A stretch of 64,000 bases of DNA, taken from assembly GCA_016699595.1 (NCBI GenBank), contig CP064982.1:203647-267646 (forward strand), given 5' to 3'. The notes below the pieces were generated by a model. It was not told the DNA's origin. It worked only from the letters and a program-made list of their open reading frames with translations, and made no database searches. Shown one piece after another: positions 18,472 to 58,039 of this stretch. The stretch's first letter is position 1, and each line of letters starts with the position of its first letter. Source of the DNA: a bacterium. Lineage in GTDB: Bacteria > Patescibacteriota > Dojkabacteria > GCA-016699595. Position numbers and translations under genes: made by a program.

Positions 18472-21400
18472 TTAAATAACTATACTAACAATTCTACCTT
18501 TGACATAGATAAACTTTTTGATTTCTACCCCTTGCAACCATTTAGCTATATTCATATCTTGCATAACTTTTTCCTTCAAACTTAATTCGTCATCATCTAC
18601 ACTCAACTCAAGCTCTCCCCTTAGCTTTCCATTAACTTGTACACCTATTACCATCTTCTCTTCAGATATAAGTTTCTCATCCCAAGTTGGCCAATTTGTT
18701 TGATGAATACTAACCTCTTCAGTCTCGCTTAGATCAACAGATTCCACAGAAGAAGCAATATTAATTGTTAAATTATTGTATATTTCATCAGTTATGAATG
18801 GTGCAAACGGTGCAAGTAATTTCATGTAAGTCAAAAAGTCATCAATTGAAATAGTCATACCTTCTTGTTCAATCAAGTTTTGGAACTTCATAAACTCAGC
18901 AACACAAGTATTGAATTTCAATTCCGGAATGTTTGTAGTTACATACTTGATCAATTTCTGTAATTCTGCTTTGACTTTTGGAGTTGAGACATAGCGTACC
19001 ATTTTAATGACTGGCAAATAATGAACATTATCTTTCAACATATACTTGTCTTCTCCACATTCTACAAACCCGAATTTTCGGTAAAGGTTAATCGCATTGT
19101 TTCCACTAACTACCTCAAGATACAAATCATGAATTGCAAATTTAGTTATTATAACTTCCATAGCAACACCTCCAATTCCTTTAGCTCTAAAATCTCTATC
19201 TATGTATAGAACTAGTTTCCTATGTTGATTTTTATCTTGAGATAGAAAGCTACTTAACCAACCTATAACTTTTCCTTCTGATTTAATTGTTAAACTGATT
19301 TTTCTGTTGGAATTTGCAAACCTTGGAATAATGTTTGTTAAATCGGTACTTTCATCAGGAACTATCATTCCTTGAATATTTTTTAGAATTTCTATATCAA
19401 TTCCAGTTTCAGGACTTATATTATTATCATACCAACCTTCAACTTGAATTCTTCTGGCATCTCTAATTTCAGATTCTTTTATTGATTCAAAAGTTAAATT
19501 ATATTTTTGAATTACTTCTTGAGCCTTTTCTGAATAACTATCTTTGACATTAGTATTTCCCAATTGTTCAGCAAAATTCCAAACTCTATCAATATATCTT
19601 CTCACTCCAACTACGGTTTCTTCGCTCCAATTCTTGCTTTGCTCAAGCGGACCCATAAACATTTCATAAACACGCAATGTATCAGCACCATACTTCTCAC
19701 AAACTGTGCTAGGATTCACGATATTTCCCCATCGCTTGCTCATCTTTCTACCATCAGGACCTTGAATCATGCCTTGATGTCTCATTTTATAAAAAGGTTC
19801 GGAATAATTTATCAATCCTTTGTCAAAAAAGTATTTCGTAAAAAACCTAGAATACATCAAGTGCAAAACTATATGCTCTGGACCAATCATATATAGATCT
19901 GTTGGTAACCAAGCATTACAAAGTTCACTATCAAAAGCCTTTGTATCGTCATTTACTGACATATATCTCATATAATACCAGCTTGAATCTATAAATGTAT
20001 CGAGAGTGTCAAATTCAAATCGAGAGCCTACTCCGTAAAGTTCTTCAGCTAATTTTTTGTAACTTTCTGAATATGCAATTGGAGATTCTCCAGTTGGTTT
20101 AAATTCAACATCAGTTGGAAGTTTGAGTGGTAAATATTTTTCATCAACTGGTTTTACAAAGTATTTTTTACCATCAAATGTTACTTCTTTGAGTTCATTA
20201 TAATCTTTGTTTTGGGAATTATCCTCAGTGACAGGAATGTAAACTATTGGAATTGGACAACCCCAATATCTTTGTCTTGAGATCAACCAATCACGAAGTC
20301 GATAAGTTATTTTTGTGCTACCTATTCCAAGTTTTTCAAATTCTTTTATAATCCTTTTTTTAGCTTCAGGAACAGTTAGTCCATTCAATATATCTGAATG
20401 GATCAATCTTGAATTTTCATCATCTGTCAAAAATGGAAGTTTCTCACACCTATCAACTTCACACTCACAATTATCCTTGCAGTTATTACAATTAGGATTA
20501 TTACAGCCGAGATTTCCTTTTGCATCTATTCGTTTTATGACCTGAACTATATCACATCCGTATTTTGTTGCAAACTCAAAATCTCTTTCATCATGAGCAG
20601 GCACTGCCATTATGGCTCCGGTTCCATAAGTATTTAGTACATAATCTGCAACAAATATGGGAATTTCAGCTTTTGTCATTGGATTTATAGCCTTTATACC
20701 TTTCACTTCAACTCCTGTTTTTTTTATTTGAGATTCTCTTTCCAGTTGAGATTTCAACTTTGCTTGATTTTTATAATCTATAATGTCTTGATTATTAGTT
20801 ATAAAATCTTGCATTTCAACGAGCATAGCATGCTCAGGAGCAATTACCATAAAAGTTGCTCCATAAATTGTATCTGGGCGAGTCGTGAAAACTTTGAGAG
20901 TATTTCCATCGTTAGAACCTTCCGCTTCCGTCACCTTCCTAGAAGGAAAGATTTGAAACTCAACTTCTGCACCTTCAGATCTGCCTATCCAGTTCTTTTG
21001 TGCAGCTTTTGTGCTCTCTGGCCAGTCAACTTCATCCAAATCTTGGTAAAGTCTTTCAGAATAATTCGTTATCTTCATAAACCATTGTTCCATATCTTTT
21101 TGAAGAACTAAACTTTCACATCTTTCACACTTTCCATTTATAACTTGTTCGTTTGCGAGGACTGTTTGACAGCTAGGACACCAGTTTACAGGAGCATTTG
21201 CTCTATATGCTAAACCATCTTTGTACATTTGCAAGAAAATCCATTGAGTCCATTTATAGTAGTTTTCCCAATGAGCAGCAAGTTCATGAGTTTCCCAGTC
21301 TGTAGAGAATCCGACCAAATCTAGTTGCCGTTTGAAATTACTTATGGCTTCTTGTGTTGTTGTATTTGGATGAATACCAGTTTTTATAGCATAATTCTCG

Positions 21401-21660
21401 GCAGGTAGCCCAAAACTATCCCAACCAATGGGCAATATTACTTCTTTGCCACGCATTCGTTCAAACCTAGCTAAAATATCAACCGGATTGAAGCAATACA
21501 TATGACCTACATGTAGTCCATAACCAGAAGGATAAGGCAAGGCAACAAGTGCATAATATTTATCTTTTTCTGACTTTAGGTTTGGCTTATAAAGTCTTTG
21601 TTCTTTCCAAACTTCTCTCCATTTGGAGTCAATTTGTTGGTGTGGGAATTTGTTTGTCAT
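18472..21660 (-). CDS. leuS: leucyl-tRNA synthetase carrying an in-frame GNAT acetyltransferase domain insertion (about aa 701-898) and a Cys-rich insertion in the editing region
   Basis: HIGH-type PYPSGYGLHVGH and KMSKRWGN. A complete GNAT motif A/B (LYIDRDFRAKGIGGVAMEVI...VVSGNNAINLYRKFGF) sits between the catalytic core and the anticodon-binding ELKFNTCVAEFMKFQN...LAPFAPFITDE. 1062 aa. Confidence 0.9.
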   Translation of the reverse strand: MTNKFPHQQIDSKWREVWKEQRLYKPNLKSEKDKYYALVALPYPSGYGLHVGHMYCFNPVDILARFERMRGKEVILPIGWDSFGLPAENYAIKTGIHPNTTTQEAISNFKRQLDLVGFSTDWETHELAAHWENYYKWTQWIFLQMYKDGLAYRANAPVNWCPSCQTVLANEQVINGKCERCESLVLQKDMEQWFMKITNYSERLYQDLDEVDWPESTKAAQKNWIGRSEGAEVEFQIFPSRKVTEAEGSNDGNTLKVFTTRPDTIYGATFMVIAPEHAMLVEMQDFITNNQDIIDYKNQAKLKSQLERESQIKKTGVEVKGIKAINPMTKAEIPIFVADYVLNTYGTGAIMAVPAHDERDFEFATKYGCDIVQVIKRIDAKGNLGCNNPNCNNCKDNCECEVDRCEKLPFLTDDENSRLIHSDILNGLTVPEAKKRIIKEFEKLGIGSTKITYRLRDWLISRQRYWGCPIPIVYIPVTEDNSQNKDYNELKEVTFDGKKYFVKPVDEKYLPLKLPTDVEFKPTGESPIAYSESYKKLAEELYGVGSRFEFDTLDTFIDSSWYYMRYMSVNDDTKAFDSELCNAWLPTDLYMIGPEHIVLHLMYSRFFTKYFFDKGLINYSEPFYKMRHQGMIQGPDGRKMSKRWGNIVNPSTVCEKYGADTLRVYEMFMGPLEQSKNWSEETVVGVRRYIDRVWNFAEQLGNTNVKDSYSEKAQEVIQKYNLTFESIKESEIRDARRIQVEGWYDNNISPETGIDIEILKNIQGMIVPDESTDLTNIIPRFANSNRKISLTIKSEGKVIGWLSSFLSQDKNQHRKLVLYIDRDFRAKGIGGVAMEVIITKFAIHDLYLEVVSGNNAINLYRKFGFVECGEDKYMLKDNVHYLPVIKMVRYVSTPKVKAELQKLIKYVTTNIPELKFNTCVAEFMKFQNLIEQEGMTISIDDFLTYMKLLAPFAPFITDEIYNNLTINIASSVESVDLSETEEVSIHQTNWPTWDEKLISEEKMVIGVQVNGKLRGELELSVDDDELSLKEKVMQDMNIAKWLQGVEIKKFIYVKGRIVSIVI

Positions 21661-30905: not shown

Positions 30906-32765
30906 TTGAGCCTACTTGAGAAAAACGAACTAGATACTGCGAGTTATATCAAAATAGTTAGAAAATATAGTCGAGATGGAAATTCAACATTCAGCAAAGA
31001 TGACATATTGAAAGAAATTGATGTATTGCTAAGGGTAAAAGGTGAATATTGCTTCCTTGGGGAAGCTGGCGAGCGAAGCGAACCTGAAGGGGTTTTGAAA
31101 AACGAATTAGAATCTCTCAAATCTGCAATCAAACTCAAACCAATGCGAACTGAATCAGGAGTTACTACAGTTACGGTTCTGACTAAACCTTATGCTTGCC
31201 CTGGACAATGTATATTTTGTCCAAATGATGTTCGGATGCCAAAAAGTTATATCGCAACTGAACCTGGAGCTCAAAGAGCTCTGATGTTCAGGTTTTCTCC
31301 ATACGCTCAAGTTTGGAATAGACTTAAAGCTTTGCAAAATATAGGTCATCCAACCGACAAAGTCGAAATGCTTGTACTTGGTGGAACTTGGACGAGTTAT
31401 AAAGAAGATTATAAACTATGGTTTACTTACAATCTTTTCAAGGCTATGAATGATTTTGGAGATGGAATTTGTGATGAGAGGTTAATGACAAAGCAAGATA
31501 TAAGTGAGATATTTGAAAATGATTTTAATGATGATATTAGGAAAAATTACTCCTTCACATGGGAAGGTGTCCAGCAAAGCAGGACAGAAGGGGTTAACTC
31601 TTTAATTGATAAAAGTAAAACTAATTTTATTGAATACAACAAACTTCTCCAAACTCAAGAATTTAAGGCGTGGGAAAAAGAAAATGTTGTTGCAGGAGAT
31701 TTTATGAATTCTCCTACATGGGAAATTTTGTTTGAAGAACAAAATCGAAATTCGAAAGGTAAATGTAGATGCGTGGGTTTAGTTTTTGAAACTAGACCAG
31801 ATAGAATTACACAAAAAGAAGTTTTGACTTTACGAAAACTTGGTGCTACAAAAGTTCAACTAGGAATTCAGATCCTAAATGATGAAATTTCAAGTTTGAA
31901 TAAACGAGGTGAGAATATTGAAGATGCTATGAAAGCTTTTGAATTACTTCGACTTTGGGGCTTTAAAATTCATGTTCATATGATGCCAAATTTACTTGGT
32001 GCAACTCCAAAGCTAGACTTGGAAAGTTATAAGTTACTCGTTAATGATCCTCACTTTCTTCCAGATGAAATAAAAATTTACCCAACAAGTTTGATTGCAA
32101 ATACTGAACTTGAGAATGAGTATAAAGCCGGAAACTGGAGACCTTATGAAACTCAAGAATTGGTTGAATTAATCGCTCAAATGATTGCAGAAACTCCAGA
32201 ATATGTAAGGTTAACTCGTATTATTCGAGATATACCAAGTCAAGAAATTGAAGCTGGAAATAAACTTACTAACTTAAGACAAGTCGTTGAGAAGTATATG
32301 CAAGATAATGATATGCAAGATCAAAATATCAGAGCAAGAGAAATTAAACAGGAAAAAGTAACTTTTGTCGATTTGGAATTGAAAATAGTTGAATATCAAA
32401 CTACAATTTCAAAAGAATTGTTTTTGGAATATGTAAAGCCCCCATTGAAAAAGGGGGGCAAGGGGGATTTTATTGCTGGGTTTTTAAGATTGAGTTTGCC
32501 TATTGATAATATTTCTGCCATGATTCGAGAAATTCATGTTTATGGTCCAAGTTTGGAAATTAGCAAAGATAGTTCTGGCGATGCTCAGCATCTTGGACTT
32601 GGGACTAAGTTGATTGAAAAAGCAAAAAAAATTGCGAAAGATTTGGGTTATAATAGCTTGAAAGTAATTTCAGCGATTGGAACTAGAGAATATTATGCCA
32701 AAAGAGGTTTTGAAATGACGGAAGATGGACTTTATCAATTGACAAAACTAAAAGTTAATTTCTAA
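30906..32765 (+). CDS. elp3: Elp3 family tRNA uridine(34) carboxymethyl-modification enzyme (radical-SAM domain plus C-terminal GNAT/KAT domain)
   Basis: Radical-SAM CxxxCxxC in ACPGQCIFCP, the Elp3 core (LVLGGTWTSY, FETRPDRIT), and a C-terminal GNAT fold (HLGLGTKLIEKAKKIA...YYAKRGFE). The TTG start is uncertain. Confidence 0.8.
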   Translation: MSLLEKNELDTASYIKIVRKYSRDGNSTFSKDDILKEIDVLLRVKGEYCFLGEAGERSEPEGVLKNELESLKSAIKLKPMRTESGVTTVTVLTKPYACPGQCIFCPNDVRMPKSYIATEPGAQRALMFRFSPYAQVWNRLKALQNIGHPTDKVEMLVLGGTWTSYKEDYKLWFTYNLFKAMNDFGDGICDERLMTKQDISEIFENDFNDDIRKNYSFTWEGVQQSRTEGVNSLIDKSKTNFIEYNKLLQTQEFKAWEKENVVAGDFMNSPTWEILFEEQNRNSKGKCRCVGLVFETRPDRITQKEVLTLRKLGATKVQLGIQILNDEISSLNKRGENIEDAMKAFELLRLWGFKIHVHMMPNLLGATPKLDLESYKLLVNDPHFLPDEIKIYPTSLIANTELENEYKAGNWRPYETQELVELIAQMIAETPEYVRLTRIIRDIPSQEIEAGNKLTNLRQVVEKYMQDNDMQDQNIRAREIKQEKVTFVDLELKIVEYQTTISKELFLEYVKPPLKKGGKGDFIAGFLRLSLPIDNISAMIREIHVYGPSLEISKDSSGDAQHLGLGTKLIEKAKKIAKDLGYNSLKVISAIGTREYYAKRGFEMTEDGLYQLTKLKVNF

Positions 32766-34419: not shown

Positions 34420-34449
34420 AAGTTTTTAAAATTATTATAAAATTGCCAT

Positions 34450-34625
34450 CAAAATACGCTAAAGCCCCACTGCGCTCTCGCTTCACTGCGTTACGCTCGG
34501 GTCATATAACACAGTATATGCGGTGAGAGCCTTGCAGGCTCTCACCCATATTCCGCTACAATTTTTAAAATGATAAAATAATGGTGTAGCGGAACATCGC
34601 ATATACTGGAACGTTAGGCGAAATA
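34450..34625 (+). repeat. GC-rich structured repeat R1, copy a (contains a perfect 10-bp hairpin GGTGAGAGCC/GGCTCTCACC)
   Basis: Shares ordered blocks with copy b at ~36860-37015: GCCCCRCTGCGCTCTC, then RTATAACACAGTRTATGCGGT, then a GC hairpin, then ACCCATATT, then ...AACGTTA. Local GC is about 50% against a ~30% background. Confidence 0.6.
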
Positions 34626-36737: not shown

Positions 36738-36859
36738 ATAAGGAGTTTTGGTTTTTTGGCATTCACCCCTAACCCCTCCGCCCAAAATCCAAAACAAAAA
36801 ACAAATTTATGATTATTGAATAAAAAGCCTGTCAAAATGAAATTGAATGAAAAATATTT

Positions 36860-37015
36860 TTTGAACTCGCTCCTTTCAGTCGCGCCCCGCTGCGCTCTCC
36901 TCCCTTCGGTCGTCGGGGCGTATAACACAGTGTATGCGGTTCGGGGTTCGGCTCGCCCCTTACCCATATTTTTGCTCCCGTTGGTCGCAACTTCTCATAT
37001 CCGCAAACGTTATAT
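36860..37015 (+). repeat. GC-rich structured repeat R1, copy b
   Basis: See copy a; same orientation, about 2.4 kb downstream. Partial related fragments are at ~35178-35200 and ~35355-35385. Confidence 0.6.
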
Positions 37016-49223: not shown

Positions 49224-49330
49224 AACTTTTTTTGAGAGGTTGAATTATATTTGCAATATTTCCATGTTCAATTACAAAATGACTAACACCTTTAACTGTG
49301 TTTTTAATGTTTATACTTTTTTCATAACCT

Positions 49331-49372
49331 TCCGTCTCGCTCATAGCTCGACACCTTCCTAAGAGGAAGGAT
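49331..49372. repeat. member of a dispersed family of short GC-rich hairpin elements (CCGTCYCGC... + CCTTCCTAAGAGGAAGG)
   Basis: Related copies are at 53291-53325, 53723-53762, 54172-54196 (CCCTCCCGTGAGGGAG), 57361-57410 (inside mnmA) and 9659-9682. Confidence 0.5.
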
Positions 49373-49380
49373 TGTAATTG

Positions 49381-50331
49381 CTATTTCGTACTTTCTACCC
49401 TAACCCAAGTTTTGGCAAATGATTTTTTGATGATTTTTCTCTCCCAAAATATTTTTATCCAAAGCCAAAGTCTAGTTGGATATAGTAGCAAACTCCAAAT
49501 AAATTCCTTCACATTTTTTGCATATTTGATTGGATAAGTTGCAAGCGCAATTTCTCCCCAAAAACTTCGAGACTTATTCGCACTGTTTATTATACCAAGT
49601 TCGTGAAGTTGGACATAACCTCCAAGCGATCTAACTTTTTGTTTATACCAATCTTTCATATTTTGAGGATACTTTATTTTGCAAAGTGCTTTTTCTTCAT
49701 ATCCTATTTCAAATCCAAGTTCCTTTATTTTATAACTCATCCAAGCGTCATCTGAAAGTACTTCTGAAGGTAATTCTAATTTGAAATTTCTCATCATGAA
49801 ATTGTAGCCTGAAACTGGGAAAAACTTATTACTTTCGCTTTTTCGAACTCTAACTTCATTTGCAGTGTCGGCAAGCAAATTTCCCCAATATCCAAATAAT
49901 GTATTTTTTTCATCAGCTGATATTGGATGACCTGTAACTGCACCAAGTTTATCATTAGATTTCAATTTATTGTGAAGATCAACTATAGCATTTTCGGATA
50001 AGTAAGTCAGATCACCATCAGTCAAAAATAAAAACTCACCTTTTGCGATTTTGAAGCATTGATTTAGTGCAGCAGGTTTTCCTTTTTTTTCGTCTTTGAT
50101 ATGGATGAAGTTATTTTCTAAACCTCCAGTCCTCCACTTTGTGGAATCTACTCTACTTGACAGCATTTTAATTTCATACATTGCTGCATTATATGTTTCA
50201 TCATCTGGACAAGCTAAGATTAGTTCAAAGTTATCTTGGAAATAGTTTAGAAAAGTAGGATTTAGTATGCAAGAGATCAAGTTTCCTATAGTTTTTTCTT
50301 CGCGCCAAGCAGTGATAATAATTGAAAGCAT
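49381..50331 (-). CDS. family 2 glycosyltransferase
   Basis: N-terminal GT-A fold with GKPAALNQ and DxD in LTDGDL. Confidence 0.7.
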   Translation of the reverse strand: MLSIIITAWREEKTIGNLISCILNPTFLNYFQDNFELILACPDDETYNAAMYEIKMLSSRVDSTKWRTGGLENNFIHIKDEKKGKPAALNQCFKIAKGEFLFLTDGDLTYLSENAIVDLHNKLKSNDKLGAVTGHPISADEKNTLFGYWGNLLADTANEVRVRKSESNKFFPVSGYNFMMRNFKLELPSEVLSDDAWMSYKIKELGFEIGYEEKALCKIKYPQNMKDWYKQKVRSLGGYVQLHELGIINSANKSRSFWGEIALATYPIKYAKNVKEFIWSLLLYPTRLWLWIKIFWERKIIKKSFAKTWVRVESTK

Positions 50332-50724: not shown

Positions 50725-53277
50725 ATGTCTACACCAAAACTTACAGCAGAACAGCAATATTTAGATCTGAAATCAAAATACCCTGATTGTATCTTATTTT
50801 TTCGTATGGGAGATTTTTACGAAGTTTTTGATAATGATGCTCGTGAAATGAGTAAAGTTTTAGGTTTAACTTTGACAAGTCGAGATAAAGGTGAGAAAAA
50901 ACGACCAATGGCTGGAATTCCACATCACGCGCTGAACCAATATTTAGGAAAAATTGTAAATTTAGGTTACAAAGTTGCAATTGCTGAGCAAATGGAAGAT
51001 GCCAAGTTTGCCAAGGGAATCGTGAAAAGGGAAGTTACAAAAGTTGTAACAGCAGGAACTTTGATTGACGAGAAAAATTTACAAGAACAAGAATCAAACT
51101 TTATTCTAGCTTTGAATTATTCTAAGTATAAAAACAGTATTGTTTGGGGTTTGAGTTATCTTGAACTTTCAACTGGAGAATTCAAACTTATAGAACTTGA
51201 AACTAGTCAAAATTATTTAGCTCAAAATAAACTACCAAGTAAAATAATTGACAAAATTTCAACTTTGCAACCAAGAGAAATATTACTTCCAGAAAAACTG
51301 AAGTACTTCCTTACTCCGATCATCCAAACAAGACTTACTTTGATCGAAGAATTCCAGTTTGACTTTGATATAAGCTATAAAAATATAATCCAACATTTCA
51401 AACTTGCAAATTTAGTTGGATTTGGTATTGAAAATTATAAAATTGCAATTGGTGCAGCTGGAGTTATATTGAATTATGTCAAAACTAGTGAAAAAACTGA
51501 ACTTAGCCATATCACAAAACTAGTTTTTGATAACTTTTCAGAAAATATGAATTTTGACTTTGCAACTATACGAAGTCTGGAACTTATTGAACCTATAAAT
51601 TTATCAAACTTAAATTCAGATAAACCTACTACTTTGCTTGGAGTTTTGGATAAAACTAAAACTCCGATGGGAAAAAGACTGATTCGAAGTTGGGTTTTGA
51701 AACCTTTGACAAATTTAGCTCAAATCCAAAATAGACTTGATAATGTCGAAAACTTTTTGAAACTAGATAATGATAATAAATTAGTTATTTCAAATTCGCT
51801 GGATAATATTTATGATATAGAGCGAATTTGCGGAAGAATTGGACTTCAAACAATTTCACCGAAAGATTTTGTAGCACTAGATGGTTCTATATCTGAAATA
51901 TTAAATTTAATTCAAACTTAAACTAAATTAAATTCTGAAAATAAGCAAGGCGAATTAAAAGAAGGTTTAATATTAAATAAATTAATTAAGTACTTTGATG
52001 AATTAAATATAATTAAAAACAAAATTAGCTCATCCCTACTTTCAAATCCAAGTTTTGAGATAAATCAAGGAAATATTTTTCAAGATAATTATAATTCTGA
52101 AATTGCAGAACTTCGAAATATTTCAACAAATTCAAAAGATTGGATATTAAATTATCAAGCAGAACAAATTACTCAAACACAAATATCAAACTTGAAAGTG
52201 AAGTTTAATTCTGTTTTTGGATATTTCATAGAAGTATCAAATTCGCAAACTTCAAAAGTTCCAGAAAATTATATCCGCAAACAAACTATTGCTGGGGGTG
52301 AAAGATATATAACTTCTGAATTGAAAGACATGGAGCAGAAAATCTTAACTGCAGATGAAAAGTTGATTGGTTTAGAAAAAGAATTATTTCTAAAGTTTAG
52401 AGAAGAATTTATACAACATATTCAAACTTTGCAAAAAGTATCACAAATTATAGCAGAAGTTGATACTTTATTTTCTTTTTCAGAAGTTGCAAAGGAAAAT
52501 AATTACACAAGACCTATATTTACTGAAAAATCGCAAGTACTAGCTATTACTTCAAATCGTCATCCAGTAGTTGAAAAACTAGTTGAAAACTTTACTTCGA
52601 ATGATTTAAATCTGAATAGTCAAAACTCAATGATGATTTTGACAGGTCCAAATATGTCTGGAAAATCCACATATATTCGGCAAGTTGCACTTTTAGCTAT
52701 AATGGCTCAAATTGGAAGTCTTGTTCCTGCTGAAAGTTGTGAGCTAAGTCTAGTTGATAGAGTTTTTACTCGAGTTGGAGCAAGTGATAATTTGTCAAAA
52801 GGTGAATCAACTTTCATGGTTGAAATGAATGAAACTGCAAATATTTTGAATAATGCGACTTCAAATTCACTTTTGATTTTAGATGAAATTGGACGAGGAA
52901 CTTCGACTTTTGATGGAGTTGCTATAGCTTGGTCAGTCATGAAGTATATTTACGAAAATCTGAAGTGCAGAACTTTGTTTGCAACGCACTATCTAGAACT
53001 TACTGAACTTGAGAAAAAGTATGATGGTATTTCAAATTATTCCGTTCAAATTGCTGAAAAAAATGATCAAGTGATTTTTATGCATAAAATAATTCCTGGT
53101 AAAGCGCAGAAATCTTTCGGGGTTCATGTTGCAGAAATTGCAGGAATGCCAAATGAAGTTATAAATAATGCTAAGGAAATTTTGAAATCTTTTGAAGATA
53201 GTCAAAATAAAGTCAAAAAGGTAGTAAATAAAAAAATAAATTCAGAAAAAATTCCTCAAATGGGATTGTTTGAGTAA
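50725..53277 (+). pseudogene. mutS: DNA mismatch repair protein MutS interrupted by one in-frame TAA at 51919-51921
   Basis: Track ORFs 50725..51921 (domain I, GDFYEVFDNDA) and 52192..53277 (ABC ATPase GPNMSGKST...DEIGRGTSTFDG) are in the same frame. The 270-nt gap between them translates without further stops into MutS-like clamp/lever sequence. Confidence 0.8.
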
Positions 53278-53342
53278 AATGATTTCTTTGAAAGTTGCTT
53301 TCCTGTTAGGAAAGCTCCCCGCAGGGGTGATAGGTTAAAAAC

Positions 53343-53762
53343 ATGATTGCAAAAAACAAACATATAATTTATAAACCAAGCATTAAGTTTGCAAGGCAGA
53401 ATAGAAAAATTATGAATAAGTATGAAGTTTTTGTTTGGGTAGCTCTGAAGATTCTGAATAAAAAGTATAGATACGGTTTTAGTAGACAAATTTGTTTTGG
53501 ACCATATATATTAGATTTTTATTCCAAAAAGTTAAAAACAAATATTGAAGTAGATGGTGAAACTCACGAATTTAGGGGTAATGAAGATATAATAAGGGAT
53601 GAATATGTAAAAAGATATGGAATAAAGATAATTAGAATAACAAATTCTGATGTTCTCAAATCATATAGCTTTCTTGATGAATATCTAAATCAAATTATAG
53701 TAAATTCTACTAACCTATCCGTCCCGCAAAGCGAGACACCTTTCCTAAAAGGAAAGGAATAA
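53343..53762 (+). CDS. DUF559 family (Vsr-like PD-(D/E)xK) endonuclease-domain protein, free-standing copy
   Basis: FSRQICFGPYILDFYSKKLKTNIEVDGETHEF...DEYVKRYGIKIIRITNSDV matches the DUF559 core (RQ.pIg.yIvDFy...l.IEvDG..H...D..R...L...G..viRf.n.dv). Bracketed by GC-rich hairpins at 53291-53325 and 53723-53762. Confidence 0.7.
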   Translation: MIAKNKHIIYKPSIKFARQNRKIMNKYEVFVWVALKILNKKYRYGFSRQICFGPYILDFYSKKLKTNIEVDGETHEFRGNEDIIRDEYVKRYGIKIIRITNSDVLKSYSFLDEYLNQIIVNSTNLSVPQSETPFLKGKE

Positions 53763-54203: not shown

Positions 54204-55220
54204 TTACTTTTTTATTACGAATCTAAATTTTGCTGATCTTGATCTGTTGTTACTCTCAACTTCAATTTCATTTGGGATTATAGGTTGATCTTTCAGATCG
54301 TTGCCGATCAAACCTTGTTCCTCAAAGGATTTAAAAAAATGCTTTACAATTCTATCTTCACCAGAATGAAAAGTTACTACTTCAAATACTCCAAATTTAC
54401 CTAATACTTCAAATCCAGAACTCAACAATCCTTCTAAATTATCATATTCGCTATTTACAACTATTCTCAACGCTTGAAAAACTTTGCTATGCAAATTAAA
54501 CTTAACTGCATTATTTTTGCCAAAAGCAATATTTATTATTTCAACTAAGCCCCCTACTTTCAGATCCCGGTTGTCTTTAATTCTATCTTTTACCAGCTTA
54601 CAAAATTTGTAACTTCCTTTTAGATCTGCATACTTTTCAAACAGTCTCACTAACTCATCCACACTAGCCATTTTCAAAATATCCAAAGCCTTGACATTGC
54701 TGTTTCTATCTAATCTCATATCAAGTTCTTGATCTAAGTTTTGAAAACTAAATCCTGATTCATTATCAAGTTGATCAGAATTCAAACCTAAATCTGCAAC
54801 CATTCCTCTAATTTTTAAATTATTCAAAATATTATCTAGTTTCAAAAATTCAATAACTTCCTTTATTTTCGCAAAGTTCTCATTAACTAAGATTACTTCT
54901 AAGCCATTATTTAAAACCTTATAAATCAATATTTCAGATCTATTTATTCCGAAATACAATTTATCGACTAACTTAAATCCTTGCTTTTCTAATTCATTTG
55001 CAAAGTTTGAAATCGCACTTTGATCAAGATCAAATGAAATAAGAATATTCCCTAACCCACCCCGAGCTTCACTTACCCTTCCAAGGAGCGGCATTTTTTG
55101 CAATTTGCTAATTATACTTTGTGAATAACCACCTCCACCAAGCGTACAATCAATCCAAATCCCATTTTTTGAAAAATCAAGATTGTCAATTGCTTCTTTG
55201 AGCATTACAGGTATATGCAT
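54204..55220 (-). CDS. rsmH: 16S rRNA (cytosine1402-N4)-methyltransferase RsmH/MraW
   Basis: HIPVMLKEAIDNL...IWIDCTLGGGGYS (compare H.PVLL.E....L....IYVDGTFGRGGHS). Its start overlaps the mraZ TGA in a TGATG junction. Confidence 0.85.
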   Translation of the reverse strand: MHIPVMLKEAIDNLDFSKNGIWIDCTLGGGGYSQSIISKLQKMPLLGRVSEARGGLGNILISFDLDQSAISNFANELEKQGFKLVDKLYFGINRSEILIYKVLNNGLEVILVNENFAKIKEVIEFLKLDNILNNLKIRGMVADLGLNSDQLDNESGFSFQNLDQELDMRLDRNSNVKALDILKMASVDELVRLFEKYADLKGSYKFCKLVKDRIKDNRDLKVGGLVEIINIAFGKNNAVKFNLHSKVFQALRIVVNSEYDNLEGLLSSGFEVLGKFGVFEVVTFHSGEDRIVKHFFKSFEEQGLIGNDLKDQPIIPNEIEVESNNRSRSAKFRFVIKK

Positions 55221-56234: not shown

Positions 56235-57848
56235 CTATTGAATTATCCCTCTTCCGAAGCAAACTTCGCCATTGTAGAAAACTGCACTTTGACCTGAAGA
56301 GATTCCACGAACTGGTTCTGCGAAGTTTAGCTCATTATTTTCTAAGTTTAATGTTGCTCGAACAGGTTTTGCTCTATAGCGAACTTCAACTTCAAGATCA
56401 ACCAACCCACCTCGTCCTTCGGACACTCCTCCAATGGAGGAGAATAATTTTGAATTTATGAAATGAAGGTTTTCAAGTTGGCAACTATTTTTATATAACT
56501 TCGGATTATCAGTTCCTTGAACTACATACAAAATATTTTTTTCTAAATTCTTGCTACTTACAAAATATGGTTTTTGATGTGGCGAAATTACTTTGATTTT
56601 ATTCAGACCTTCTCGTTGACCTATAGTATAAAATGCAATCCCATCATGCTCACCTACTTTAAGCCCACTGTCTTCATCTACTATAATTCCAGGTTTATAA
56701 GCGATATTATTCCTCAAAAACTGAGCAACATCAATATCTCCTATAAAACAAATTCCTTGAGAATCTTTCTTTGTTGCAATTGGAAGTTCAAACTCTTCTG
56801 CTAATTTTCGAACTTCACTTTTTTGTAAATGACCAATTGGAAATAGTGTTTTGCTAAGCTGAAATTGATTTAGATCAGACAGAAAATAAGACTGATCTTT
56901 GTTTTGATCCAAACCTTTTAGTAAAAAATATTCAACAGATTTAGATTGATTATTTACATTAGCAAATTCTACAGTTGGGCCTTCCTGATAAGGAGGGTAA
57001 ATTTCGCTTTGCGAAATTTGGGAGGTTAAATAATTTTTAATTTTAGTGCAAACAATTTCAAAATTATACTCTACATCATTACTTTCAAATCTTAAAACAT
57101 TTATTCCTAGACTATTTAAATAATTCGTTCTTACTTTATCATATTCTAAACCTTCAGTAGTAAAGTGTTCTGCACCATCAAGTTCTATTGCAAGATTATA
57201 TTTTGAACAATAAAAATCTACTATGAAATTTCCTATTGGTTTTTGTCTTGTAAATTTATAATTTTCTAGTTTTGATAAGAAGTCATACCAAAGATGATTT
57301 TCAGACCTAGTTGCTCGTTTGTGATGTCTATTTAATTTTGTCAAGTTTGTATTGTAATTAACCCACCGTCCCGCTTCGCTGTCCACCTCCCTTGACAGGG
57401 AGGCCACCAAATTTGGAGTGATATTGTCAGTACTTGACTTTACTCTTGCATAATGTCCTGTTGCGATCATATCAGCGTCTTCCTCTAATGCTCTATTTAG
57501 AAAAGTTCCAAACTTGATTTTACTATTGCAAAGTATATCTGGGTTTGGAGTTCTACCTGCTCTATATTCATCAAAAAAATAATTTACAACTTGTTCTCTA
57601 TATTCTTTTTCAAAGTTATATATCTTCATCTCAATTCCAAGTTTGTCGCAAACTAACTTCACATCTTCTACATCCTTTTCCCATGGACAATCAGTTTGAA
57701 TTCCAAAATCTTCACCTGACCAATTTTTCATGTAAACTCCAACTACATTATCTCCATTTGATTTCAAAAGTGCTGCAACTACTGAAGAATCAACTCCTCC
57801 GGACATTGCAACGAATATTGTTTTTTTGCCGCTGTCTATAACATTCAT
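56235..57848 (-). CDS. mnmA: tRNA-specific 2-thiouridylase MnmA carrying an in-frame ~170-aa insertion that contains a complete DUF559/Vsr-like endonuclease domain
   Basis: PP-loop SGGVDSSV, ATGHYAR, then the insert, then EYFLLKGLDQNKDQSYFL (canonical LRGLD.NKDQSYFL) and GICFIGD. The insert contains FTRQKPIGNFIVDFYCSKYNLAIELDGAEH...GINVLRFESNDV. Confidence 0.85.
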   Translation of the reverse strand: MNVIDSGKKTIFVAMSGGVDSSVVAALLKSNGDNVVGVYMKNWSGEDFGIQTDCPWEKDVEDVKLVCDKLGIEMKIYNFEKEYREQVVNYFFDEYRAGRTPNPDILCNSKIKFGTFLNRALEEDADMIATGHYARVKSSTDNITPNLVASLSREVDSEAGRWVNYNTNLTKLNRHHKRATRSENHLWYDFLSKLENYKFTRQKPIGNFIVDFYCSKYNLAIELDGAEHFTTEGLEYDKVRTNYLNSLGINVLRFESNDVEYNFEIVCTKIKNYLTSQISQSEIYPPYQEGPTVEFANVNNQSKSVEYFLLKGLDQNKDQSYFLSDLNQFQLSKTLFPIGHLQKSEVRKLAEEFELPIATKKDSQGICFIGDIDVAQFLRNNIAYKPGIIVDEDSGLKVGEHDGIAFYTIGQREGLNKIKVISPHQKPYFVSSKNLEKNILYVVQGTDNPKLYKNSCQLENLHFINSKLFSSIGGVSEGRGGLVDLEVEVRYRAKPVRATLNLENNELNFAEPVRGISSGQSAVFYNGEVCFGRGIIQ

Positions 57849-58039
57849 AAGTTTCAATAATTTACACAAAAATTATACCACTTCCATAGGGGTTTAACTT
57901 ATTTTAGATAAAGTTACAATATTTCTCAAAAAATGCTTGACTTATACCTCTTTTTTGGTACAATGACTTTGTCAACCAACAATATTGTCTTTGACTATGT
58001 CATTCGATGATATTGTAGTTGGAAAATCTTTGGTTTTTC

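Follow-up and report, generated by a model that had tools for sequence, protein, structure and literature searches.

A DUF559 nuclease between inverted triplex-motif repeats, in frame within mnmA of a Dojkabacteria genome

Inteins are selfish nuclease insertions that are carried in frame by conserved enzymes and are compatible with the function of their hosts. The EDxHD homing endonucleases, of the type of I-Bth0305I (Dassa 2009, Taylor 2011), show a patchy and lineage-specific presence within conserved genes. The BoxC/PIT/'TM' repeats (Hoyne 2000; Holder 2015, PMC4666352) are GC-rich, dispersed elements in which a pyrimidine and a purine arm, joined by a loop, precede a second loop and a purine/GT tail in mirror orientation (class II). 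The E. coli representatives, BoxC/PIT/'TMECO', form triplex DNA in vitro, as determined by circular dichroism and nuclear magnetic resonance, and are reported to be intergenic in every case; motifs of this type occur in large numbers in more than 260 genomes and at times form inverted pairs, no mobility function was found for them, and that study makes no mention of DUF559 in connection with them (PMC4666352). In the present work a stretch of 64,000 nt of a Dojkabacteria genome (Patescibacteriota; assembly GCA_016699595.1, contig CP064982.1, positions 203,647 to 267,646), hereafter the window, was analysed, and its mnmA gene was found to carry a DUF559 nuclease gene in frame between inverted repeats of BoxC-like geometry. 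The extra segment is probably a selfish cassette with a nuclease gene, read by the ribosome as a lasting additional domain of MnmA, rather than a native domain of this enzyme or an intein. The components belong to known kinds, namely selfish nuclease genes and in-frame palindromic repeats; they offer a testable link between DUF559 and BoxC-type repeats. In the literature, of which the coverage was incomplete, no paper was found that links DUF559 to triplex-motif repeats or that describes in-frame DUF559 cassettes.

The features of the mnmA locus are the following (positions of the window):
56235..57869, minus strand: mnmA open reading frame (ORF), 544 aa, reading frame unbroken through the insert
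57021..57356, minus strand: DUF559 (Vsr/EDxHD-like PD-(D/E)xK) nuclease core, aa 172-283 of the mnmA ORF
57361..57404, minus strand: left terminal repeat of the cassette, coding ASLSREVDSEAGRW, 57% GC, 7/8 mirror triads
56979..57026, plus strand: right terminal repeat of the cassette, inverted with respect to the left one, 7/8 mirror triads, fold z = -3.4

The mnmA ORF contained the tRNA_Me_trans HUP (PP-loop) domain in two stretches (Pfam, 2e-77) with DUF559 (PF04480) between them at aa 183-281 (E = 7.1e-25, 87.4 bits versus a Pfam gathering cut-off of 20.6), followed, after the second HUP stretch, by the MnmA PRC-barrel and the C-terminal barrel domain. All residues invariant across 49 MnmA sequences were kept, including the SGGVDS PP-loop, Cys114 and Cys374. 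Compared with the structure of Streptococcus pneumoniae MnmA (2hma), residues 148 to 315 of the query correspond to residues 140 to 144 of the chain, with approximately 165 residues in the place of a tight turn of 3 residues. Homologues of MnmA were searched among 5.8 billion proteins and the best 120 matches were examined. PF04480 was present in one of them, the identical NCBI protein P0001, and absent from the other 119, which were 345-393 aa long, no more than about 56% identical over long stretches, and in many cases from Candidatus Dojkabacteria. The inserted segment was a gap in all other sequences of the alignments with 12 and with 48 relatives, and the host loop at the insertion point differed in length by up to about 20 residues among relatives. 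These data agree with an earlier note on this DNA, made from the sequence alone, which had placed a DUF559 domain in frame within an mnmA intact on both sides and had proposed to verify its absence from relatives. The same note counted about 170 extra residues, which holds for the extra segment as a whole; the mobile part comprises 142 codons (56979..57404), and the remaining residues belong to a lineage-variable host loop, present also in some other MnmA proteins. The annotation of P0001 starts 7 codons downstream of 57869 (537 aa) under the name 'DUF559 domain-containing protein', by which its identity as MnmA is hidden.

The nuclease core of the insert retained 14 of the 14 invariant residues of an alignment of 48 DUF559 sequences (D..F, E-x-D-G-x-x-H, D..R, R), and matched the DUF559 structure 3hrl of Neisseria gonorrhoeae in a PDB search (E = 4e-17). 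Its nearest relatives were free-standing proteins of 118-135 aa, 44-56% identical, mostly from Clostridia, Bacteroidota, cyanobacteria and Chloroflexota. These free-standing homologues begin (MSLKYNYNL...) exactly at the RWVNYNTNL of the insert, where the left repeat stops, so that the insert represents a whole DUF559 gene lacking its start and nothing else. Structure predictions with AlphaFold2 (AF2), built on two separate alignments (MnmA and DUF559), gave for the 170-aa segment a core (aa 40-145) with predicted local distance difference test (pLDDT) values of 86-98 and flanks below 60; in the full-length model the MnmA parts exceeded 90 and the connecting segments 161-190 and 286-308 remained below 50. 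The predicted core showed the restriction-endonuclease-like alpha/beta fold. In a Foldseek search the first match was 3hrl and the second the catalytic domain of the homing endonuclease I-Bth0305I (3r3p; Foldseek E = 5e-5; E = 4.2e-4 with the DUF559 family profile), both with a template modelling (TM) score of 0.82. On the other hand, membership of the Vsr family was not found: Pfam assigned DUF559 and MTES_1575 and not Vsr, and 1vsr was a weak fold match (E = 0.05, TM 0.45). A full DUF559 core had already been reported in the earlier note. As in the EDxHD homing endonucleases, a homologous catalytic domain thus occurs with a patchy, lineage-specific presence within a conserved gene; unlike them, the mnmA cassette lies outside any intron or intein and not between the halves of a split intein, it would be translated together with its host protein, it lacks the extra DNA-binding regions of I-Bth0305I, and inverted triplex-motif repeats enclose it.

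No Hint or intein family was matched by the mnmA ORF in Pfam at E <= 0.01. Approximately 30 residues flank the nuclease core on each side, leaving no room for an intein domain (Hint, about 130 aa), and the junction residues of inteins (N-terminal Cys or Ser; C-terminal His-Asn followed by Cys, Ser or Thr) were absent from the borders of the insert. The likeness to inteins is therefore that of a selfish nuclease inserted in frame in a conserved enzyme and compatible with host function; in contrast to inteins, removal by that chemistry is impossible here, and none is indicated. The earlier observation that splicing motifs are missing was accurate, and its description of the insert as intein-like in outcome is misleading, since nothing suggests removal and the mature protein most probably retains the domain. 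In Rfam the window gave tRNA-Leu as the sole match, and no intron family.

From outer hairpin to outer hairpin the cassette extends over 426 nt (56979..57404), that is, exactly 142 codons with no in-frame stop, and consists of the left repeat, the full DUF559 ORF without its start codon, and the right repeat in inverted orientation. On the coding strand, the left repeat is formed by the pyrimidine arm GCCTCCCT, the loop GTCA, the purine arm AGGGAGGT, the small hairpin GGACAGCGAAGCGGGA with a GAA loop, and the tail (C)GGTGGGT. On the plus strand, the right repeat is formed by the pyrimidine arm GCCTTCCT, GATA, the purine arm AGGAGGGT, the 9-bp hairpin AAATTTCGCTTTGCGAAATT and the tail TGGGAGGT, and it is translated from the minus strand as TSQISQSEIYPPYQEG. 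The nuclease core had a GC content of 25% and a third-codon-position GC content (GC3) of 13%, the host gene a GC3 of 19-23%, and the flanking repeats GC contents of 57% and 44%, in a window of 32% GC. A core more AT-rich than its host gene, between repeats that are still GC-rich, points to a long residence, with the repeats maintained against mutational bias.

The repeats were detected by a GC-window scan and motif searches followed by a hairpin-plus-tail scan, a repeat search with default seeds having missed them, and arm pairing and mirror symmetry were scored by script, without a covariance model. In general terms, the repeat (about 45 nt) opens with a pyrimidine arm, which a loop joins to a purine arm; 'TG' and a small hairpin come next, and a G/T-rich tail in mirror orientation to the purine arm closes it. 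The tail repeats this arm neither directly nor in inverted form but in mirror image, A corresponding to A or T, as in the pairs AGGGAGG and GGTGGGT, AGGAAAGG and GGATAGGT, and GGAGGAG and GAGGTGG. At least 7/8 or 7/7 mirror triads were obtained for 6 of the 11 scored candidates, including all 4 that flank the mnmA insert and a second, free-standing DUF559 gene of the window. The mirror statistics were computed on the window together with 170 related loci (612 unique hairpin sides), with the copy sought within 42 nt: 199 sides had a full mirror copy and 89 a direct copy, and 141 had the mirror copy only versus 31 with the direct copy only (p = 6e-18; shuffled-arm control 2.7%). The hairpin was usually followed by 'TG', and of 157 elements with a spacer of at least 9 nt, 125 formed another small hairpin in it, its loop often being GAA or GCA. 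Fold z-scores of single copies were modest (-0.03 to -4.3), and the argument is carried by the family-level statistics.

This geometry, as read from the sequence, is the one that an intramolecular DNA triplex of the purine motif requires, and is that of the BoxC/PIT/'TM' elements: the 5' pyrimidine arm, the pairing purine arm and the 3' mirror domain (G:G, A/T:A) of a class II intrastrand triplex are all present. The second connector exceeds the loops of 1-6 nt of the ITxF definition, being of 12-20 nt in the nine clear copies and usually forming its own hairpin. The repeats of the window are thus like the BoxC-type elements in layout, in GC richness, in dispersal and in the occasional inverted pairs, and differ from them in the 12-20 nt second loop with its hairpin, in their in-frame position in ORFs and in flanking DUF559. 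Purine-motif triplexes do not form in RNA (PMC4666352), which argues that the conserved feature of the repeat acts at the DNA level.

The free-standing DUF559 gene has the same architecture:
53343..53762, plus strand: free-standing DUF559 gene, 139 aa, Pfam E = 3.8e-16
53297..53335, plus strand: its left repeat, intergenic, with the tail ending 7 nt before the ATG, 7/8 mirror triads
53713..53757, minus strand: its right repeat, inverted, coding the C-terminal tail SVPQSETPFLKGKE, z = -4.3, 8/8 mirror triads

The stop codon of this gene (53760-53762) lies just beyond the outer end of the right repeat. Its product and the mnmA insert were 31% identical, in an alignment that extends into the repeat-encoded tails; the two nucleases of the window are old paralogues with a common architecture, and not donor and copy. 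The earlier note had correctly reported the same domain 3.5 kb away from mnmA, as far as the family is concerned, and a hairpin element at the border of both copies; that element does exist, on both sides of both copies and in inverted orientation rather than on one side. Terminal inverted repeats, as in terminal-inverted-repeat transposons and miniature inverted-repeat transposable elements, are therefore found at both DUF559 copies, and the transposase of such transposons is missing, the DUF559 nuclease being the sole protein encoded by the cassette.

A putative MutS-like ORF was observed on the same strand, 66 nt upstream of the free-standing gene (region 52192..53762, plus strand), labelled as such from the motifs TGPNMSGKST and DEIGRGTS, read by eye. 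In E. coli both MutS and MutL stimulate Vsr, so that the neighbourhood of the two ORFs may be either meaningful or fortuitous.

The repeats beside DUF559 genes were surveyed in 80 DUF559 loci from GTDB genomes of many phyla. Hairpins were found no more than 150 nt from the gene in 74 of these loci, at 4.4 per kb compared with 0.66 per kb farther out, and they tended to face the gene: 24 forward and 8 reverse upstream, 8 forward and 34 reverse downstream, and 28 and 30, respectively, at a distance (Fisher p = 1.6e-6, 80 loci). Free-standing DUF559 genes with the same hairpins at their ends were present on three other contigs of the Candidate Phyla Radiation type, and complete modules with a GCGAAGC hairpin were found across Paludibacter, Clostridia and cyanobacteria. 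Some DUF559 genes were flanked by arrays of 2-4 repeats (L048, L004). In E. coli K-12, the DUF559 gene ycjD (L171, NC_000913.3 1351030-1351840) ends in a degenerate pyrimidine/purine hairpin that contains the stop codon; within about 170 nt there follow a second copy of approximately 50 nt of the 3' end of ycjD and, after it, a consensus BoxC/TMECO motif.

In-frame DUF559 was also detected in other host genes. In a Paludibacter contig (L076) an N6/N4 DNA methylase and DUF559 share one open frame, the host sequence continues afterwards, and the peptides PPYQGG, PPDKGG and PPLSGGL, of the repeat type, flank DUF559 on both sides. A profile search returned 51,592 DUF559 proteins among 1.84 billion cluster representatives, and about a dozen of the best 150 matches were long proteins with an internal DUF559. 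Among them were a MurD-like Mur ligase (P0304), in which the C-terminal domain of the host picks up after the insert, several Type ISP enzymes, in one of which the insert interrupts the specificity domain, and an Eco57I-like enzyme that carries DUF559 twice; repeat-type peptides stood at the junctions in all of these cases. In a metagenome contig (L168, 1625-2950), a DUF559 ORF runs with no stop through a repeat-type linker into the start of a ribF-like gene (riboflavin kinase/FAD synthetase, labelled from sequence alone), as an N-terminal fusion. Given the methylase, MurD-like, Type ISP, Eco57I-like and ribF-like cases, the mnmA insert is one member of a recurrent class. Two further candidates for long fusions (L055 and L038) were rejected, as their frame had been extended past a stop codon. 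In P0221, P0222, P0261 and P0329 the DUF559 domain was present two or three times, either in tandem or at different places of the same host protein, which suggests repeated insertion into or beside existing cassettes.

Repeats of the same type occur alone elsewhere in the window. Scanned for a hairpin with a pyrimidine arm and a following ...RGGTT, the window gave 10 matches, corresponding to 9 distinct elements, versus 0.26 expected (100 simulations, maximum 2); one match was the opposite-strand reading of the palindrome in the C-terminal part of mnmA, and the right repeat of the insert and the copy in rsmH were missed by the scan for technical reasons. The solo repeats are:
56407..56442, minus strand: in frame in the MnmA C-terminal domain, GGVSEGRGGL, in a region gapped in relatives, 7/7 mirror triads
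31051..31091, plus strand: first repeat in the Elp3-like radical-SAM/GNAT ORF 30906..32765, in frame, FLGEAGERSEPEG
31552..31595, plus strand: second repeat in the Elp3-like ORF 30906..32765, in frame, FTWEGVQQSRTEGV
20918..20952, minus strand: in leuS, in frame, FPSRKVTEAEGS, aligned to a gap in Thermus thermophilus LeuRS
55054..55087, minus strand: degenerate repeat in rsmH, in frame, GRVSEARGGLG, a weak copy whose fold is no better than that of shuffles
49327..49370, minus strand: after the glycosyltransferase ORF 49381..50331, 11 nt past its stop, 7/7 mirror triads

The solo coding copies share one orientation relative to the coding strand and encode hydrophilic loops rich in Ser, Glu, Gly and Arg. 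The leuS ORF (18472..21660, minus strand, 1062 aa) additionally contains a GNAT domain (Acetyltransf_1, E = 1.6e-9) at aa 781-873, between the catalytic core and the anticodon-binding domain, with no repeat seen at its borders, and is a second housekeeping enzyme of this genome bearing an extra domain. In another part of the window, direct repeats of 46-120 nt with about 91% identity were observed 1.7-7 kb apart (33483-33670/40504-40696, 32641-32695/38178-38232 and 38807-38852/40476-40521), together with unusually GC-rich short patches (34447-34553 and 36748-36977); no Rfam family reached threshold in that region.

The reading of the insert as a selfish cassette is supported by its inverted terminal repeats and by the presence of DUF559 with the same repeats, in frame, in unrelated hosts. 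With the observed anatomy of the cassette, its lineage-specific presence, its intact nuclease signature, the intact MnmA motifs and the recurrence in other phyla and ORFs as a basis, the following course may be proposed. The cassette lies at the tip of a beta-hairpin on the surface of the MnmA catalytic domain. Its read-through translation would give an MnmA of about 62 kDa with a folded nuclease domain on two flexible, repeat-encoded linkers, as suggested by the absence of a stop codon, of a start codon proper to the nuclease and of a splicing apparatus, and by the predicted disorder of the linkers. MnmA activity would be retained, since the insert appears to project from a variable loop. The nuclease may nick or cut at or near triplex-motif or hairpin DNA, or may act on sites without repeats, and repair from a cassette-bearing copy would then spread the repeats and occasionally the whole cassette. 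Its role would be analogous to that of the RAYT transposase with REP/REPIN elements, or to that of a free-standing homing endonuclease of the same fold, and the surviving insertions would be those that kept the frame in tolerant loops. As in the repetitive extragenic palindromic (REP) system, a gene in few copies is flanked by inverted short hairpin repeats that are also dispersed in the genome; unlike it, the enzyme is a PD-(D/E)xK nuclease and not an HUH/Y1 transposase, and the geometry is that of a triplex and not of a simple hairpin, the likeness being drawn from sequence. Rickettsia palindromic elements and the LAGLIDADG genes in fungal mitochondrial rps3 also persist within ORFs as translated in-frame insertions in tolerant loops; they differ in sequence, in nuclease family and in hosts, and neither joins a nuclease ORF with terminal triplex-motif repeats. 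The proposal of a selfish cassette in the earlier note is thus supported, with mobility as its conditional part; that interpretation is essentially right, and the finding is broader than was stated.

Several data weigh against this reading. Its weakest step is mobility, including the mechanism of movement, which is argued by analogy. No empty-site allele and no relative more than 60% identical was found among the best 120 MnmA matches, which places recent mobility and the ancestral site beyond demonstration, and no direct repeat corresponding to a target-site duplication was detected at the borders of the cassette. The evidence on this mnmA comes from one genome, a metagenome assembly, and expression as a fusion is deduced from the open frame. 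We know of no activity described for any protein of this DUF559 subfamily. The second loop of the repeat, of 12-20 nt, is longer than in experimentally characterised triplexes. In free-standing loci, a distance of 6-10 nt often separates the tail from the start codon downstream; the tail of the repeat may be a ribosome-binding site, and the hairpin may stabilise or terminate the transcript.

The last of these points leads to an alternative in which the repeats and the nuclease do not form one mobile unit, DUF559 having entered by unrelated illegitimate recombination and the repeats being independent elements or expression signals. The position of the tail upstream of the ATG in many free-standing loci, the fact that most repeats of the window are solo and distant from any DUF559 gene, and the absence of an associated mobility function in the E. 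coli BoxC study (PMC4666352) are in agreement with it. However, the repeats are located on both sides of the nuclease even inside a coding sequence, where expression signals would be pointless, their orientation is strongly non-random on both sides of the gene, they are enriched about 7-fold beside it, and the same module accompanies DUF559 genes that are 31-55% identical, across phyla. This explanation is consequently considered unlikely.

It appears improbable, too, that DUF559 has been domesticated as an adaptive addition to MnmA, for instance as a nucleic-acid-binding or repair module, and is no longer selfish. The host-like, very AT-rich codon composition and the conservation of all the characteristic residues are compatible with a long residence under selection, and other housekeeping genes of this genome bear extra domains, such as GNAT in leuS. 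Nevertheless, the domain is absent from every other MnmA among the best 120 matches, the synthesis of s2U34 has no known functional connection with a DNA nuclease, the same cassette is carried by hosts of unrelated function, and its flanking repeats are those typical of free-standing copies.

Removal of the insert before the protein is mature, whether by protein splicing, RNA splicing or a ribosomal bypass promoted by the hairpins, is very improbable. Stable GC-rich hairpins are located at both junctions, and bypass or splicing associated with nucleases has precedents in T4 gene 60/mobA, inteins and group I introns. Against this, there is no Hint or intein match, only about 30 residues remain per side, the Cys/Ser...His-Asn/Cys junctions and any Rfam intron are lacking, and the nuclease is in the mnmA frame, with no stop over 142 AT-rich codons and no start of its own; an in-frame, stop-free and start-less nuclease is expected under read-through and is not required by bypass or splicing. 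Finally, an assembly chimera or an inactivated mnmA is hardly credible, for although the protein comes from a single metagenome-assembled genome and was found in no second sample, the reading frame runs unbroken through both junctions, the core matches the host in composition, the catalytic and invariant MnmA residues are kept on both sides of the insert, the identical protein is listed from both the NCBI and the Logan collections, and the same architecture is present in independent assemblies of other organisms.

The presence of a selfish nuclease cassette in mnmA would mean that a nuclease gene can reside in a conserved enzyme without splicing machinery, its translation product forming an additional domain within a tolerant loop. 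The finding also links the large, uncharacterised DUF559 family to the BoxC/PIT repeats, whose origin and spread have been unexplained since the 1990s, and yields a testable hypothesis of enzyme and substrate, also in E. coli (ycjD, BoxC). For annotation, it is a warning that the label 'DUF559 domain-containing protein' can conceal housekeeping genes. Tentatively, it is possible that DUF559 nucleases are the missing partner enzymes of BoxC/PIT-type repeats, in a mobile system that would recognise DNA structure (triplex or hairpin) and colonise coding sequences in frame; if true, this system would have produced chimeric housekeeping enzymes, such as MnmA and the MurD-like ligase, and many chimeric restriction-modification enzymes.

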